DNA of 15,744 nt. Source: a virus (taxonomy: Duplodnaviria; Heunggongvirae; Uroviricota; Caudoviricetes). The stretch lies in the IMG/VR virus record IMGVR_UViG_3300023210_000016; one strand, written 5' to 3'. Positions within the stretch are counted from its first letter, which is position 1. Each line of letters begins with the position of its first letter. The translations under genes were made by a program, and so were the position numbers. Under the pieces are notes generated by a model. The model was not told where the DNA came from and did no database searches. It saw only the letters and a program-made list of their open reading frames with translations. Positions 407 through 13,979 of this stretch are shown one piece after another.

Positions 407-1047
407 TATTGCATTCCCCTCTGATCCGGATGTGGGGGTACTGCCCCTGCCGCAGATGATGAAATGAATGTTTTTTGATCTCTGTTCAGGTTCACTAGAT
501 TGCCCTCTTCGTTTATTTCGAATTGAAACGCGGTCTGTTCTTGGCCGGTCAATACCAAATTCATGTCGGTGGTTGCCACCACTTTGTATGGATTGATCTG
601 AACCAACTCAACGTGTATCGGAACAGGGGTGGTTTTCTGATCTTTGCGATTATACAAATGAATGTTCACAATGTATTTACATGGCAACTTGCTGCGTAAA
701 CTGGTGACTTCACGGTTCAATACAGACTCGGTAACAATTCCATTGATGTTCACCTTGTCGTTTTGCTGTCCGCGATCATCGCGATCCAAGTGCATATGCC
801 CGTTGTCTTTCTTCCGGAAACTCACAAATCCAGATGTCGCACATTTCGTCCACGTATCGATGTCGTTCTTATCGCCATCAGGCCATGACATGATGATCAA
901 GTATTCTGCTTTCTCTTCGGTGTCATCCTTCTTCGTGGGTGGATTAATCAGAATGAACGCCAACACAAACAGAAACACAAACCCTATCAATAGGTTGAAT
1001 AACAAATCAACAAATCCGATAGAACTTACGAACCGTTTATTTTGCAT
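406..1047 (-). CDS. ExbD/TolR/MotB-like single-TM protein with a YfaP/DUF2135-like soluble domain (213 aa)
   Basis: Start moved to ATG 1047 (MQNKRF), overlapping the upstream stop. The TM helix carries an Asp (FVDLLFNLLIGFVFLFVLAFILI), like the conserved Asp of ExbD/TolR/MotB. The C-terminal pattern SWPD..DID.W...HLDRDD.G...NRE......KYIVNIHLY resembles DUF2135. Confidence 0.7.
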   Translation of the reverse strand: MQNKRFVSSIGFVDLLFNLLIGFVFLFVLAFILINPPTKKDDTEEKAEYLIIMSWPDGDKNDIDTWTKCATSGFVSFRKKDNGHMHLDRDDRGQQNDKVNINGIVTESVLNREVTSLRSKLPCKYIVNIHLYNRKDQKTTPVPIHVELVQINPYKVVATTDMNLVLTGQEQTAFQFEINEEGNLVNLNRDQKTFISSSAAGAVPPHPDQRGMQ

Positions 1048-1540
1048 CGTCGTTTTCCAGCACAACCAATTGTGCTTGCGCCAATACCGAACATACCAAT
1101 CCGACCAATGTTGTCGTCAATGCCGTGCTCATACCAACTGCCATTTCACCAATAACCGCTGTCATGCCTACTTTGTCTGTTACATCCAAGTTCAGGAACG
1201 CGGACCCCAGCATAATCAAGAACCCAGTAACCGTGCCAATCATGCCCAATGAGGTCATCTTCTCGGCAACGAACCAGCAATAATTGTTGAACTGTGTGAA
1301 TACTTTGATGTTTTCTGGATGATCAACAATATCTGGCTGACACCGTGGCTTGATTTTACTCAAATACCCGGTGGTTACAGTAGTTCCTACGAACAATGCG
1401 AGGATAAGGAAACTTAGTTTTGTCTGATCCGATACCCATAAGAACTCAAATCCCCCGAATTGATATACCACTAGGGTAAAAAATCCTGTGAGCACGACCT
1501 GTACCCACCATTTAAACAAAGCACTATTTCCGACTTTCAT
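1037..1540 (-). CDS. MotA/TolQ/ExbB proton-channel family protein (167 aa)
   Basis: Channel-helix motifs GMIGTVTGFLIML and GMSTALTTTLVGL, plus N-terminal hydrophobic helices. Start moved to ATG 1540, which has AGGA 7 nt upstream. Confidence 0.85.
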   Translation of the reverse strand: MKVGNSALFKWWVQVVLTGFFTLVVYQFGGFEFLWVSDQTKLSFLILALFVGTTVTTGYLSKIKPRCQPDIVDHPENIKVFTQFNNYCWFVAEKMTSLGMIGTVTGFLIMLGSAFLNLDVTDKVGMTAVIGEMAVGMSTALTTTLVGLVCSVLAQAQLVVLENDDAK

Positions 1541-1553
1541 ATCTGATCCTATC

Positions 1554-1589
1554 AAAACGCGAAAAGGGGCAACACGTATGTTACCCCTT
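1554..1589 (-). terminator. Rho-independent terminator-like hairpin downstream of hsp20
   Basis: The minus-strand RNA reads AAGGGGUAACA-UACG-UGUUGCCCCUU, with a UACG tetraloop and one U.G pair. The CCCC arm is followed by UUUU-CGCG-UUUU. Confidence 0.75.
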
Positions 1590-1608
1590 GTACGCTCGTA
1601 GGTATTTA

Positions 1609-2076
1609 TTAATCTACAGACGTGATCTCGATTTTGCGAGGCAGAAATTCTTCTGGAATTTCACGCTCTAGGGTGATAAGCAATAGCCCATTCCGTGATT
1701 GAGCATCATTTACCTTGATATGCTCGGCCAAATCCCATGATCTGCTGAAAGAGCGGGTGCTAATTCCACGATGCAGGTACTCAGTATCGGTTTCTGTCCG
1801 ATCATCACGCGATTTTCCCTCAACAACGAGTGTGTTGCGGTCCAATGTGATGTCAATTTCGTCCATATCAAACCCAGCAATTGCCAGTTCAATGGTGAAC
1901 TTGTTGTCATTTTGTTTGATGATGTTGTAGGGTGGGTAGCTGGATGCATTATCTGCTTGTCCTAGCATCTTTTCCACCATGGATTCAAACCCAACACCGT
2001 GTTGGTTAAATGAATTCATAAATTGTGGAAGGTCTCTCGTGCGCAAAGTGCGCGGTCGTCTGTCGTTTCTTGGCAT
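1609..2076 (-). CDS. hsp20: Small heat-shock protein, Hsp20/alpha-crystallin family (IbpA/IbpB type)
   Basis: Motifs SYPPYNI, IELAIAGF, EYLHRGIS.RSF.R.W.LA, NGLL.I.LEREIPE and PRKIEI. SD is AAGGAG. Confidence 0.95.
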   Translation of the reverse strand: MPRNDRRPRTLRTRDLPQFMNSFNQHGVGFESMVEKMLGQADNASSYPPYNIIKQNDNKFTIELAIAGFDMDEIDITLDRNTLVVEGKSRDDRTETDTEYLHRGISTRSFSRSWDLAEHIKVNDAQSRNGLLLITLEREIPEEFLPRKIEITSVD

Positions 2077-2181
2077 AATATTAACTCCTTGTTAAAAAAT
2101 CTAAGCAAGTTTGGTCGGCACCCCATTATTGGCAGTGCCTGTATTTGTGTACCCGGATCATTCCGCAGTACACGAATTCTG
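2077..2181 (-). promoter_or_regulatory. ROSE-like RNA thermometer 5' UTR of hsp20 (three hairpins)
   Basis: The last hairpin pairs AACUU(G)CUU (2111-2103) with AAGGAGUU (2090-2083), hiding the SD. It contains the ROSE UUGCU motif and a bulged G (2106). Two more hairpins lie at 2147-2173 and 2117-2139. Confidence 0.75.
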
Positions 2182-2186
2182 TATTG

Positions 2187-2194
2187 TATTTATA
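2187..2194 (-). promoter_or_regulatory. T4-type late promoter motif TATAAATA upstream of the hsp20 leader
   Basis: Exact match to the T4 gp55 late consensus, intergenic, and just upstream of the structured leader. Confidence 0.65.
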
Positions 2195-2197
2195 CGT

Positions 2198-2335
2198 TTA
2201 ACTCAACGCATTAAAAAATGCACTGATAGCTTCACCGGCAATAATAGGCACATAGTGGGTGATCACGATGTATTCGCCAATCACGATTGCTACGCCTAAT
2301 ACAAGAAATATGCTGATTGCTTGTGTGTTAGTCAT
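2198..2335 (-). CDS. 45-aa hydrophobic small protein coupled to bS21 (not in the ORF track)
   Basis: ATG overlaps the rpsU stop (TAATG). It encodes MTNTQAISIFLVLGVAIVIGEYIVITHYVPIIAGEAISAFFNALS and fills the gap up to the late-promoter motif. Confidence 0.7.
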   Translation of the reverse strand: MTNTQAISIFLVLGVAIVIGEYIVITHYVPIIAGEAISAFFNALS

Positions 2336-2574
2336 TACATGTCTTTTCGGATTTCACGCAACTTCTTGGCCCAGCGTTTCTTCGCCATAGCCTTTTTGCG
2401 CTTACGAATGGTCGTAGGTTTCTCGTAGAACTGCTTGTCCCTGTATTCCATGAGAATACCGTCAAGCTGTACTTTTTTCTTGAACTTACGAATCGCTTTA
2501 CTGATGTCGCCGTTCCGTACAATGACGGATAAGCCGCGTGGTCGTGTGTCGCCTTGTTGATATCTTAGTGCCAT
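2335..2574 (-). CDS. rpsU: Ribosomal protein bS21
   Basis: VIVRNGDISKAIRKFKKKVQLDGILMEYRDKQFYEKPTTIRKRKKAMAKKR matches the bS21 pattern. SD is GAGGA. Confidence 0.92.
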   Translation of the reverse strand: MALRYQQGDTRPRGLSVIVRNGDISKAIRKFKKKVQLDGILMEYRDKQFYEKPTTIRKRKKAMAKKRWAKKLREIRKDM

Positions 2575-2604
2575 GTGTTCCTCTTTACTGTAACTAAGGT
2601 ACCA

Positions 2605-3015
2605 TTATATGACATCTGAGTTACCGTTGTCAACTTCTTTTCGCACAAATATCTCTAATGGATCATTCATTCGATTTTGATTGATCGGCATCCAATTATC
2701 AACGTTGCCGTACCATGAAGTCTTCTCCATCGATAACATATATCCCTTGAACACGCCCGTAATTGGTTGCTCTTGTGACCAGTATAAATCCATATTCAAT
2801 ATGATTAGGTCAGATGCTGCCGCCTGTTGGAGTAACCAATCAGTGTTCGAATCGTGGTGGCCATACAAATGTAATGCGTACGTGAGTTTAGCGGTACTGA
2901 GAAAGTCCGAGATTTTAGTGAGCCAGAACTCTTCCACATCCACCATTAAGATGCTCGGTTTGTTCACATACAATATGTCCGGTGGTGTTATTACTATCGA
3001 TTCTTGTTCATTCAT
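2605..3015 (-). CDS. Hypothetical protein (136 aa)
   Basis: Start moved to ATG 3015 (MNEQESIVITPPD), which has AAGGAAG upstream and an 8-nt overlap with the preceding gene. Confidence 0.75.
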   Translation of the reverse strand: MNEQESIVITPPDILYVNKPSILMVDVEEFWLTKISDFLSTAKLTYALHLYGHHDSNTDWLLQQAAASDLIILNMDLYWSQEQPITGVFKGYMLSMEKTSWYGNVDNWMPINQNRMNDPLEIFVRKEVDNGNSDVI

Positions 3016-7620: not shown

Positions 7621-7947
7621 TTATAGCATTTCCGTGATGTATAGAAGACCACCAGTGGAGTCTTGGATCACAGCGATATTTTGAACCAAAACACTGTCGC
7701 CAACATCACCAAGTTCAAAATACTCTGGAACGTTTGCTGGCATGAACATATCTTCGGCAGTTGCAATTGGAGTTGCGCCGAACTTGACATGGCAGTCTTC
7801 TGTTGCGATTAAACGAACAACAGTTGAATTTGTGATTGCGGTTGTGGTAGGAACGGAACTGGTAGCGAATGTCAAAACAATTGTTTGTCCGGGCATCAGT
7901 ACCTGAACATTGCGCTTATTGGCGTCTGTGTGTAGTGTGGTGGCCAT
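7621..7947 (-). CDS. Small beta-rich protein, possibly a virion decoration or tail accessory (108 aa)
   Basis: Strong AAGGAG SD. Alternating hydrophobic strands (VVRLIATEDCHVKFG, IAVIQDSTGGLLYITEM). Adjacent to the LamG gene. The function is an inference. Confidence 0.75.
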   Translation of the reverse strand: MATTLHTDANKRNVQVLMPGQTIVLTFATSSVPTTTAITNSTVVRLIATEDCHVKFGATPIATAEDMFMPANVPEYFELGDVGDSVLVQNIAVIQDSTGGLLYITEML

Positions 7948-7991
7948 TATTATCTCCTTGTATCATGTATTTATGATACCTAGAGATAATA
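7948..7991 (-). promoter_or_regulatory. SD-sequestering hairpin with a late-promoter motif (CATAAATA, 7975-7968) at its apex
   Basis: TATTATCTC-TAG-GTATCAT-[AAATAC]-ATGATAC-AAG-GAGATAATA fills the whole gap between the upstream TAG and the ATG at 7947. Confidence 0.75.
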
Positions 7992-12020: not shown

Positions 12021-12710
12021 TCAAGCGTTTTCGTAAAACAACAGATATTCGTATGCATACGACAACAATCGTTGCAAGGGTTTCGCATTCGGCGGGAATA
12101 CCTGACGATGCTTGTCATACGTTAATAACAGTTCTCGATGTTGTTCAGGATTGCGCAATATCTCCAAAGGATTACCGGCTTGTTGGGCTTCCCGACAAAC
12201 ATCATGACCATGCGCCATCAACTCATGAGGATCACGGAAATACGATCTCATAACAGTTCGATGTTTTTGATGTTCTTCAACATGTTCGGCTTTTTGTAAT
12301 CCTATCTGATATCCACTCGGCAATGTCTTGAATTTCTGTGCACCCATTTTATCTCGTTGTTTCAAATGGATATTCTCATGCTCAAGCGTCTGCATAACAG
12401 ATGTCATGAAACTCTTCGGACCCCAATATGTCAATTGTATTGGGTCTAAGGTAATATCAATGTGGCCATCATTGTGAACCATTGCGTTTTGGATATACCA
12501 AGCGATTGTGGACACTCCCTCGGACCCCATCCAGAATACCATGTCATGAGCGGCGGATAATTCATTGAGAACATCGAGTAGAACATCGAAGTCATCTATG
12601 TCTTGGTGGCGATCCAGATAAGTTTGATACAGAGTGCATGCATGTTGCATTTGATCTTGCACGGATGTCATGGTTTCAGGTTCTGGCAATAATACGGCTT
12701 GATGAAGCAT
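12021..12710 (-). CDS. Zincin-like HExxH protein, putative metallopeptidase (229 aa)
   Basis: LEHENIHLKQ with a downstream YFRDPHELMAHG as a candidate third-ligand Glu. Start moved to ATG 12710. Confidence 0.7.
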   Translation of the reverse strand: MLHQAVLLPEPETMTSVQDQMQHACTLYQTYLDRHQDIDDFDVLLDVLNELSAAHDMVFWMGSEGVSTIAWYIQNAMVHNDGHIDITLDPIQLTYWGPKSFMTSVMQTLEHENIHLKQRDKMGAQKFKTLPSGYQIGLQKAEHVEEHQKHRTVMRSYFRDPHELMAHGHDVCREAQQAGNPLEILRNPEQHRELLLTYDKHRQVFPPNAKPLQRLLSYAYEYLLFYENA

Positions 12711-12739: not shown

Positions 12740-13093
12740 ATGAAATAACAATGGGACAACCACTTGGAATTCACATTCGTAGAAATTCACTACTATAACG
12801 GTAGTTACAAAATGCTATTTAAGGGCGAGGGACCATGGGGTGGGCCTCGCTCTTTTTCGTTGTACGAGTTTGAAACATTCGAAAAGATGTTCCCTCCCAG
12901 TCAAGCAGAATTCACCAAAGGCAAACAAGCTTACCATACATTCATGAAACATAAGGAGCAAAATCATGGAAATCAGAGAACTGACAGTAGACACACACGA
13001 AAAAGTAATACACGCAACCGACTCAAAGAGTGGATTGGACTGTTATATCGCAATACACAGCACAAAATTAGGGCCATCTTTGGGCGGAACTAG
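12740..13093 (+). other. Uncertain ORF: ATG-AAA-TAA followed in frame by 114 sense codons (interrupted gene, TTG-12764 gene or non-coding leader)
   Basis: ATG 12740 is in frame with the track ORF 12764-13093 but is interrupted by TAA at 12746-12748. The 3' 128 nt overlap the dehydrogenase gene. Confidence 0.35.
12821..12857 (+). terminator. Terminator-like hairpin in the leader of the dehydrogenase
   Basis: AAGGGCGAGG-GA-CCA-UGGGG-UGG-G-CCUCGCUCUU, a 10-bp outer stem with one G.U pair. A U5 tract lies at 12853-12857. Confidence 0.5.
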
Positions 13094-13979
13094 GTTCTGG
13101 TCATACAAGAGTGCTCCAGAAGCTCTCACAGACGCTCTACGGCTCTCTGAGGGCATGACTTACAAGAATTCTTTGGCTGGGCTTGATCTCGGCGGGGGAA
13201 AAGCTGTAATCAACCTTCAAGACACGGAAAAGACTCCAGAATTGCTTCGTGCATACGGGGAAGTGGTTGATAGCTTGGGCGGCACATACATCACAGCAGA
13301 AGATGTCGGGTGTAAACCGGGCGATCTCGAAATCATCGCAGAAACCACCAAACACACTGTTAATCCACGAGTTGGTGATCCAAGTCCTGCAACTTCATAT
13401 GGCGTATTGAAGGCCATGGAAGGTGCGTTGATGGTTCACAAGCAATATCCTTCATTCAAAGGTATTCGAGTGATGGTCCAAGGACTCGGCAATGTTGGTT
13501 TTGGACTATGTGAGATGTTGATGCAGAAGGGCGCAATGGTATATGGCTCAGATATCAATCCGGAAGCGGTGCAACGTGCGTCAGATGCCGGTGTATCGAT
13601 TGTTCATCAGGCTCACATGTTTGATGGCATATATGATGTATATGCTCCGTGTGCGTTAGGCGCAACCGTGAATGATGCTTCTATTAGGATGATGAAAATA
13701 GATATTATCTGCGGTTCAGCGAACAATCAATTGGAAACACCTGAATTGGCCCGAGTATTGAAGGCCAAAGGCATTACGTATGTTCCTGATTATCTGGCTA
13801 ATGCTGGTGGAGTGATTAATTGCTATCGTGAGTTCGGCATGGTTCCTACTGATTTCCATACTGCAGCAATCATTGATGGAATCTATCATAGAACTGTGAA
13901 GTGTTTGAAGGATGCAAACAGAGAAGCCACCACGTCAACTGCAATAGCTGATGCGATGGCTTTATCTAGATTGACTTAA
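12966..13979 (+). CDS. ldh: Glu/Leu/Phe/Val dehydrogenase family, leucine-dehydrogenase-like (337 aa)
   Basis: Motifs AIHST.LGP.LGGTR, GMTYKN, LGGGKAVI, YITAEDVG, GDPSP.T..GV, QGLGNVG (GxGxxG), APCALG, GSANNQL and YVPDYLANAGGVI. SD is AAGGAG. Confidence 0.93.
   Translation: MEIRELTVDTHEKVIHATDSKSGLDCYIAIHSTKLGPSLGGTRFWSYKSAPEALTDALRLSEGMTYKNSLAGLDLGGGKAVINLQDTEKTPELLRAYGEVVDSLGGTYITAEDVGCKPGDLEIIAETTKHTVNPRVGDPSPATSYGVLKAMEGALMVHKQYPSFKGIRVMVQGLGNVGFGLCEMLMQKGAMVYGSDINPEAVQRASDAGVSIVHQAHMFDGIYDVYAPCALGATVNDASIRMMKIDIICGSANNQLETPELARVLKAKGITYVPDYLANAGGVINCYREFGMVPTDFHTAAIIDGIYHRTVKCLKDANREATTSTAIADAMALSRLT

Follow-up and report, generated by a model that had tools for sequence, protein, structure and literature searches.

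We propose that the 121-nt spacer upstream of hsp20 in the large uncultured phage of record IMGVR_UViG_3300023210_000016 (Caudoviricetes) is a ROSE-like leader for translational control, inherited among phages together with the IbpA-type hsp20 gene that it precedes; on the strength of sequence comparison, we consider this likely. The spacer occupies positions 2197..2077, on the minus strand, of the 15,744-nt stretch of this record that we analyzed (here referred to as the window). ROSE elements are heat shock switches reported from alpha- and gammaproteobacteria, and they are fed by σ32 promoters. What we regard as new is that a ROSE-like element belongs to a phage and stands behind a promoter that is not of the σ32 type and, in the window, that it takes an atypical form with three hairpins and a U-rich insertion. 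A full-text literature search turned up no account of a ROSE-like element at the hsp20 gene of a phage, and nothing has apparently been published on the control of cyanophage hsp20 translation. The gene itself is a core gene of T4-like cyanophages, and its leader is unmentioned in the study that lists it as such (Sullivan et al. 2010, PMC3037559).

In the hsp20 neighborhood of the window, the genes run along the minus strand. The hsp20 gene (1609..2076, minus strand) encodes an IbpA-type small heat shock protein of 155 amino acids with a clear Hsp20/alpha-crystallin domain (Pfam HSP20, E = 1.3e-17), and a database search returned IbpA-type proteins as its closest homologues, at ~50% identity. 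The equivalents of E. coli IbpA residues Y34 (SYPPYN), R93 (GISTRSF), and R97 are retained. Upstream of hsp20 on the same strand lie a gene for ribosomal protein S21 (2335..2574; Pfam E = 5.8e-18) and, between S21 and the leader, an open reading frame (ORF) for a hydrophobic 45-aa protein (2198..2335). Directly 3' of hsp20, a strong hairpin (about -20 kcal/mol) with UUUU after it (1562..1587, minus strand) is likely, from its predicted fold, to be the intrinsic terminator of the gene, and because of this terminator hairpin and its UUUU, hsp20 looks like a separate transcription unit. The surroundings are phage-like, with a baseplate-wedge-like protein, a cell wall hydrolase, and numerous orphan ORFs.

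All parts of the leader are read on the minus strand. Directly after the stop codon of the 45-aa ORF stands the box TATAAATA (2187..2194), an exact T4-type late consensus. It is followed by hairpin 1 (2147..2173), which has the form stem-U-G(bulge)-CGG...CCG-G-stem and may extend to 2178..2143, and by hairpin 2 (2117..2139), of the form stem-U-G(bulge)-CCA...UGG-G-stem. Next come the anti-Shine-Dalgarno (anti-SD) sequence AACUUGCUU (2103..2111), a hairpin loop that holds the U-rich insertion with its run of six U (2091..2102), and the Shine-Dalgarno (SD) stretch AAGGAGUU (2083..2090), with the core GGAG at 2088..2085 and the AUG start codon of hsp20 (2076..2074) 8 nt on. The initial annotation had described AACUU-G-CUU as covering the SD, with a U.G wobble beside a bulged G, and had placed two hairpins before it and TATAAATA directly upstream of these. 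That description held in every part: the pairing is exact at 2111..2103 against 2090..2083, and the hairpins were located at 2173..2147 and 2139..2117 and the box at 2194..2187. UUGCU (2108..2104) faces AAGGAG (2090..2085), and the order of pairs is A-U, A-U, C-G, U-A, U.G, bulged G (G2106, which the wobble adjoins), C-G, U-A, U-A.

This geometry, in which eight bases pair with the SD stretch and a G is bulged out between the fifth and sixth pairs, arose in 0.9% of 20,000 dinucleotide-preserving shuffles of the leader. The leader as a whole is more stable than its shuffles (z = -2.9), and hairpins 1 and 2 stay closed from 10 to 50°C in predictions. The UUGCU anti-SD, the bulged G, the stable 5' hairpins, and the IbpA-type hsp20 downstream support the classification of the window leader as ROSE-like.

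Relatives of the leader were sought among viruses. A blastn search of the locus against 50,697 phage records gave no match, and neither did a scan of IMG/VR with a single protein query. Scanning IMG/VR with an alignment of IbpA-type proteins yielded 80 viral loci, whose Hsp20 proteins are 40 to 50% identical to that of the window. Within the 70 nt before the start codon, 76 of the 80 carry a hairpin, the motif Y(U/C)GC(U/A), and RGGAG, followed by the start. The parts come in a fixed order in these 76 loci: a stem-U-G-CC...GG-G-stem hairpin (hairpin I of the family), a short linker, (A/U)CUUGCUUA or a near variant, 2 to 10 nt, and AGGAG. The anti-SD motif is UUGCU or UCGCU in nearly all of 73 relatives; it is thus near-invariant among viral loci whose proteins are 40 to 50% identical, while its flanks diverge.

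We built a covariance model, R1, from 14 viral hsp20 leaders with a hand-checked structure, leaving the window out. R1 matches the window solely at 2139..2071, over its full length (model positions 1 to 65), with 27.4 bits, and it aligns hairpin 2 of the window to hairpin I of the family. The match has an E value of 6e-4 in 277 kb and of 4.4e-5 in the 20-kb locus of this phage (L001), noise at unrelated places in the loci reaches at most 17.6 bits, and across 28.7 kb of this phage a leader of the R1 type stands at hsp20 alone. The match and the shared arrangement of parts show that the window leader is homologous, in sequence and structure, to the leader that precedes almost all viral hsp20 genes examined.

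Two further features were seen among the viral loci. In L011, L022, L016, and many others, GUCAU lies ~10 to 15 nt upstream of the anti-SD and is complementary to the AUGAC with which the gene starts, and this outer helix may also sequester the start codon in those relatives; the window gene starts with AUGCC and lacks this feature. Several viral loci also have a second, weak R1 match of 11 to 18 bits just 3' of hsp20 (L087 3007..3079, L052 1920..1969, L023 1947..2005, L056 1939..1985, L072 1914..1963, and L027 1953..1997), which could be a related leader on the following gene.

Covariation in the leaders of other phage hsp20 genes, proposed as a check in the initial annotation, bore out the pairing, with compensatory changes at 9 of 9 pairs of hairpin I and at 3 of 7 pairs of the SD helix. 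When 68 leaders were aligned to R1, standard pairs filled 95% of cells, compared to 76.5% in shuffles, in an alignment that was fitted to R1 itself and in which many rows are related. None of 500 shuffles attained any of the five observed pairing measures, and sliding the partner columns lowered pairing to ~50 to 60%. Of the seven pairs in the SD helix, two are invariant across the 68 leaders, another two have one-sided changes, and in the remaining three both partners change; the helix varies little because the ribosome site constrains it. The one-sided change is from U.G to C-G beside the bulge (U.G in 60 leaders and C-G in 7), which matches the ROSE consensus U(U/C)GCU.

An anchored count, which does not depend on the model alignment, gave similar evidence of compensation. 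The position opposite the base after GGAG (-4) is C in 6 of 9 leaders in which that base is G and in 0 of 64 otherwise, and swaps from a UA to an AU pair were found in two lineages. Cyanophage S-TIM61 has a fully compensated variant, CCACGCUU/AAGGUGG, in which CCAC-G-CUU lies opposite AAGGUGG. A plain MAFFT alignment of 73 leaders yielded almost no RNAalifold structure, because the stems fall out of register in it, and the hand-checked seed and covariance model were used instead. Within the lineage of this phage no covariation is available, since it has no close sequenced relative and its leaders in 10 metagenome contigs are identical.

Comparison with the Rfam models gave a divided result. 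The window produced no gathering-level match in an Rfam scan; under permissive settings it matched ROSE_2 with 13.6 bits (cut-off, 65; E = 6 over all families), and ROSE_3 did not appear for it at E values up to 10. The window thus falls below all thresholds, while its relatives do match ROSE_3, if still below the cut-off: three of them scored 39.2, 37.5, and 34.5 bits against a gathering score of 43, with E values of 1.6e-4 to 2.4e-3 (4227 families, 66 kb). DUF2815 RNA (16 bits) and freshwater-2 (32.5 bits on L011) were rejected as different elements that have the ribosome-site region alone in common with the leaders.

ROSE_3 (RF02523) models the ROSE-like thermometer of Pseudomonas ibpA, a short element with two hairpins that has been characterized by reporter assays, ribosome-binding assays, and structure probing (Krajewski et al. 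2013, PMC3669281). Its hairpin II melts between 25 and 42°C and by itself confers thermoregulation, while hairpin I stays closed and has been proposed to stabilize the 5' end; without the bulged G, the element is locked shut (PMC3669281). In sequence, the viral leader family resembles these thermometers. It shares with them a stable bulged-G hairpin I (GAUGCC...GGGUC in relatives), whose core, GAUGCCGA.AGUCGGGUC, is nearly identical to the Rfam ROSE_3 consensus, a short hairpin II formed by imperfect pairing of U(U/C)GCU with the SD across from a bulged G, and an IbpA-type gene downstream. The window differs from the Pseudomonas element in having three hairpins instead of two, an AU-rich SD hairpin with a 10-nt U-rich insertion and without flanking G-C clamps, and TATAAATA instead of a σ32 promoter, and in being borne by a phage.

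In its layout, two bulged-G hairpins and then an SD hairpin, the window is closer to the ibpA leader of E. coli and other enterobacteria (ROSE_2, RF01832), and ROSE_2 is the sole Rfam thermometer model that aligns with it end to end. The three-hairpin layout also occurs in many alpha- and gammaproteobacterial homologues. In E. coli ibpA, CUC-G-CUG pairs with CAGGAG around a 4-nt loop, and this SD hairpin is the predicted minimum-energy fold, which that of the window is not. A third likeness is to the fourU RNA thermometer of Salmonella agsA, in which an upstream U run pairs with the purine-rich SD of a small heat shock gene. The window segment GAUUUUUU is fully complementary to AAGGAGUU if G.U pairs are allowed, although here the U run is part of the loop of a hairpin of the ROSE type. 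Among the leaders examined, the U run is unique to this phage, and its fourU-like pairing is no more stable than the ROSE pairing.

The window copy departs from its viral relatives in two respects. Two bulged-G hairpins, instead of the single hairpin I of the family, precede its SD hairpin, and the core of hairpin 1 (UGCGGAAUGAUCCGG) is nearly the same as hairpin I of L037, L038, and L071. Its SD hairpin loop measures 16 nt inside the C-G closing pair, compared to 4 to 10 nt in relatives, and the 10-nt U-rich insertion, with its run of six U, was found in none of the 73 relatives measured. The insertion allows two pairings that compete with the ROSE pairing. One is a register-shifted hairpin (2109..2088), which covers just AAG and the first G of the SD and has a predicted energy of -3.3 kcal/mol at 37°C and -6.5 kcal/mol at 20°C; the other is the fourU-like pairing of GAUUUUUU with AAGGAGUU, at -1.2 and -4.3 kcal/mol. 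The corresponding values for the ROSE pairing are -1.3 and -4.2 kcal/mol. RNAfold favors the shifted hairpin over the ROSE pairing by ~2 kcal/mol at every temperature, but the program predicts the ROSE pair in just ~15% of the family and is for that reason a poor judge here.

The predicted pairing of the SD is ~0.4 in the window, compared to a family median of ~0.7 and 0.8 to 0.9 in E. coli ibpA. Folding across temperatures, likewise proposed as a check in the initial annotation, showed that the 5' hairpins persist; the ROSE pairing was not preferred, and SD occlusion was almost flat. Flat in silico profiles are not informative on this point, because the validated E. coli ibpA thermometer is equally flat, its predicted SD pairing going from 0.88 to 0.79 in folding across 4 to 50°C and hardly changing from 10 to 45°C. 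Since the U-rich insertion offers two alternative pairings, we expect the SD of the window to be occluded less than in its relatives, or with a different tuning. The initial annotation had called the leader a complete ROSE-like thermometer: "ROSE-like" stands, and "complete" thermometer goes further than the evidence, given the lack of an Rfam threshold match and the competing folds that the insertion allows.

The promoter was assigned with less confidence. The initial annotation had seen no evident σ32 promoter, and we agree, since the best match to CTTGAAA-N13-17-CCCCATNT has 8 of 14 positions. It had also read TATAAATA as a T4-type late promoter. In favor of that assignment, the box is an exact 8-mer of the T4-type late promoter TATAAATA (cyanophage form, NATAAATA) with no -35 hexamer, the best candidate upstream agreeing at 3 of 6 positions; TATAAAT has been used as a query for cyanophage late promoters (Sullivan et al. 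2010, PMC3037559). The extended hairpin 1 starts 8 nt downstream of the box, and we place the predicted transcript start near 2181-2180. Among 68 related leaders, 44 have a (T)ATAAATA element 5 to 8 nt before hairpin I. Of the five copies of ATAAATA on the gene strand of the window, four fall in short intergenic gaps; one of them, a CATAAATA, precedes by 20 nt the start codon of the gene that heads the structural gene block (7947..7621). Against the assignment, the box in relatives is often the -10 element of a σ70-type promoter. This is how, from its sequence context, we read the box in 22 of the 68 relatives, including a gp23-bearing T4-like contig, where it has a -35 element with 5 or 6 of 6 matches to TTGACA at 16 to 18 bp, often with TGn. 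The window has just two full copies of TATAAATA, of which one lies on the wrong strand, and 15 of 200 shuffles have as many.

Conservation of the box upstream of hairpin I, the intergenic copies, and the terminator that hsp20 has of its own favor the late-promoter reading, and we regard it as plausible, with chances about even, that TATAAATA is a late promoter of hsp20. A perfect σ70-type promoter, TTGACA-18 nt-TATAAT (2604..2633, minus strand), lies upstream of S21, and read-through from it could also yield hsp20 transcripts. Gene-strand NATAAATA boxes of the window are found at 7967..7974, the position already noted upstream of the gene at 7947..7621, and at 1603..1611 (both minus strand), the latter overlapping the hsp20 stop codon just before the terminator hairpin. 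The leaders of nine loci (L064, L070, L073, L075, L078, L085, L087, L036, and L045) form a sub-family without TATAAATA; a conserved TTGTCAA...TTGCCAAGTAAGT stretch precedes hairpin I in its place and suggests another type of promoter.

The leader had initially been taken to point to a proteobacterial host. This did not hold, because cultured Synechococcus phages have the same leader and the window Hsp20 groups with viral sequences. Among cultured phages, R1 scored 57.8 bits on OM43 phage Melnitz, 33.1 on S-N03, 27.1 on S-CREM1, 26.2 on Kyanoviridae phage C48C1, 25.4 on S-RIM4, and 23.2 on Pelagibacter phage HTVC115P. S-N03, S-CREM1, and S-RIM4 are Synechococcus phages, as is S-TIM61 with its variant. 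In a quick maximum-likelihood tree, 72 alpha- and gammaproteobacterial homologues form one side of a branch (SH-aLRT, 93), and the window Hsp20 falls, on a long branch, inside a group of 33 viral sequences (98). Both gene and leader therefore look inherited among phages rather than freshly acquired from a host. The RNA alone leaves phage descent versus separate capture from bacteria unsettled, because bacterial ROSE leaders score up to 27.7 bits with R1, equal to the window. In another Synechococcus phage, S-CAM3 (L092, KU686198.1), an in-frame ATG lies ~70 nt upstream of the annotated hsp20 start, after ACUCGCUA...AGGAGU. This arrangement suggests that the gene really begins at the upstream ATG, behind a ROSE-like hairpin, and that its start was annotated too far downstream.

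If the leader works as its parts suggest, the mRNA would begin a few bases after TATAAATA, and the one or two stable bulged-G hairpins at its 5' end would serve as a scaffold for folding or shield the transcript. The UUGCU anti-SD would pair weakly with the ribosome-binding site, through the U.G wobble and around the bulged G, and because this pairing covers the site, translation would be held down until the SD hairpin opens. Warmth could open it, as in bacterial ROSE elements, and so could Hsp20 coming off the leader of its own mRNA. Homology with the Pseudomonas and E. coli elements suggests heat as the opening signal.

The alternative signal has a precedent. IbpA of E. coli, Cedecea, and Vibrio represses its own translation through a ROSE-like 5' UTR, and this repression depends on R93, on an aromatic side chain at position 34, and on basic residues at 97/98 (Cheng, Miwa and Taguchi 2023, PMC10474464). 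By analogy, the phage leader could be mainly an operator of Hsp20 self-repression: the chaperone would sit on its own 5' UTR and block translation until unfolded or aggregating proteins, in a phage the flood of virion proteins, titrate it away and translation rises. The window combines a ROSE-like leader with an IbpA-type protein that keeps Y34, R93, and R97, as do most of the aligned phage homologues and as E. coli IbpB does not, and phages from cool aquatic habitats conserve the leader, although heat is a less obvious signal there than the load on protein folding. However, K98 is Ser in the window protein, the L037 relative has at position 93 a Lys that is inactive in E. coli (PMC10474464), and self-repression has been demonstrated for gammaproteobacterial IbpA only. 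Self-repression is a serious alternative or addition, though as the main role we consider it possible but rather unlikely; it can coexist with thermosensing, and for a phage, keeping track of folding load while virions are being made looks no less useful than sensing heat. A bolder version, which we think unlikely, is that phage ROSE-like leaders are operators of a phage proteostasis feedback and not thermometers in practice, with the U-rich insertion adding a fourU-like closure tuned to cool water. If that were true, chaperone supply would track assembly load independently of host σ32.

The remaining explanations do without sensing. The leader might be an inherited passenger whose hairpins stabilize the 5' end of the mRNA and whose weak SD pairing sets a fixed, low level of translation. 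The modest and nearly temperature-flat SD occlusion predicted for the window fits this, as do the position of the family hairpin I at the extreme 5' end of the predicted transcript and the 5'-stabilizing role proposed for hairpin I in Pseudomonas (PMC3669281), but flatness counts for little when a validated thermometer is equally flat in silico. Nor would a passenger be expected to keep its anti-SD motif almost invariant while the flanks diverge and the viral proteins are only 40 to 50% identical. Changes in the SD are, moreover, compensated in the anti-SD, which argues that selection acts on the SD/anti-SD pairing itself, and we hold the passenger explanation to be quite improbable. The two stable hairpins right after the stop codon of the 45-aa ORF could also be read as terminators or attenuators of the upstream S21 operon, with the complementarity to the SD a coincidence. 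A U run follows neither hairpin, and a terminator scan lists none here; with U runs absent, a terminator role for the leader hairpins was ruled out. Dozens of viral hsp20 genes in unrelated gene neighborhoods have this hairpin and anti-SD in front of them, and the rarity of the ROSE geometry among shuffles speaks against coincidence, making this reading as a whole extremely improbable. Translational control by a ROSE-like leader is the interpretation that we retain.

The viral ROSE-like leaders stand behind phage-type or σ70-type promoters. If they sense temperature or folding stress, phages would regulate a chaperone posttranscriptionally without the heat shock regulon of the host, and this would bear on the effects of temperature in marine and freshwater infections. 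The cultured phages that carry the leader make it directly testable.

Several other genes of this phage were noted in passing. A MotA/ExbB-like gene adjoins hsp20 (window positions 1037..1555). Downstream of the window, positions 12195..19887 of locus L001 hold a cluster of host-like proteostasis, translation, and counter-defense genes, which encode ClpS, an RF-1-domain protein, NifU, the anti-Pycsar protein Apyc1, and a Gad2-like protein. The sole long plus-strand gene of the window (12966..13979) encodes a Glu/Leu/Phe/Val dehydrogenase (Pfam E = 2.7e-23 and 2.5e-19), a metabolic gene within a minus-strand phage block.
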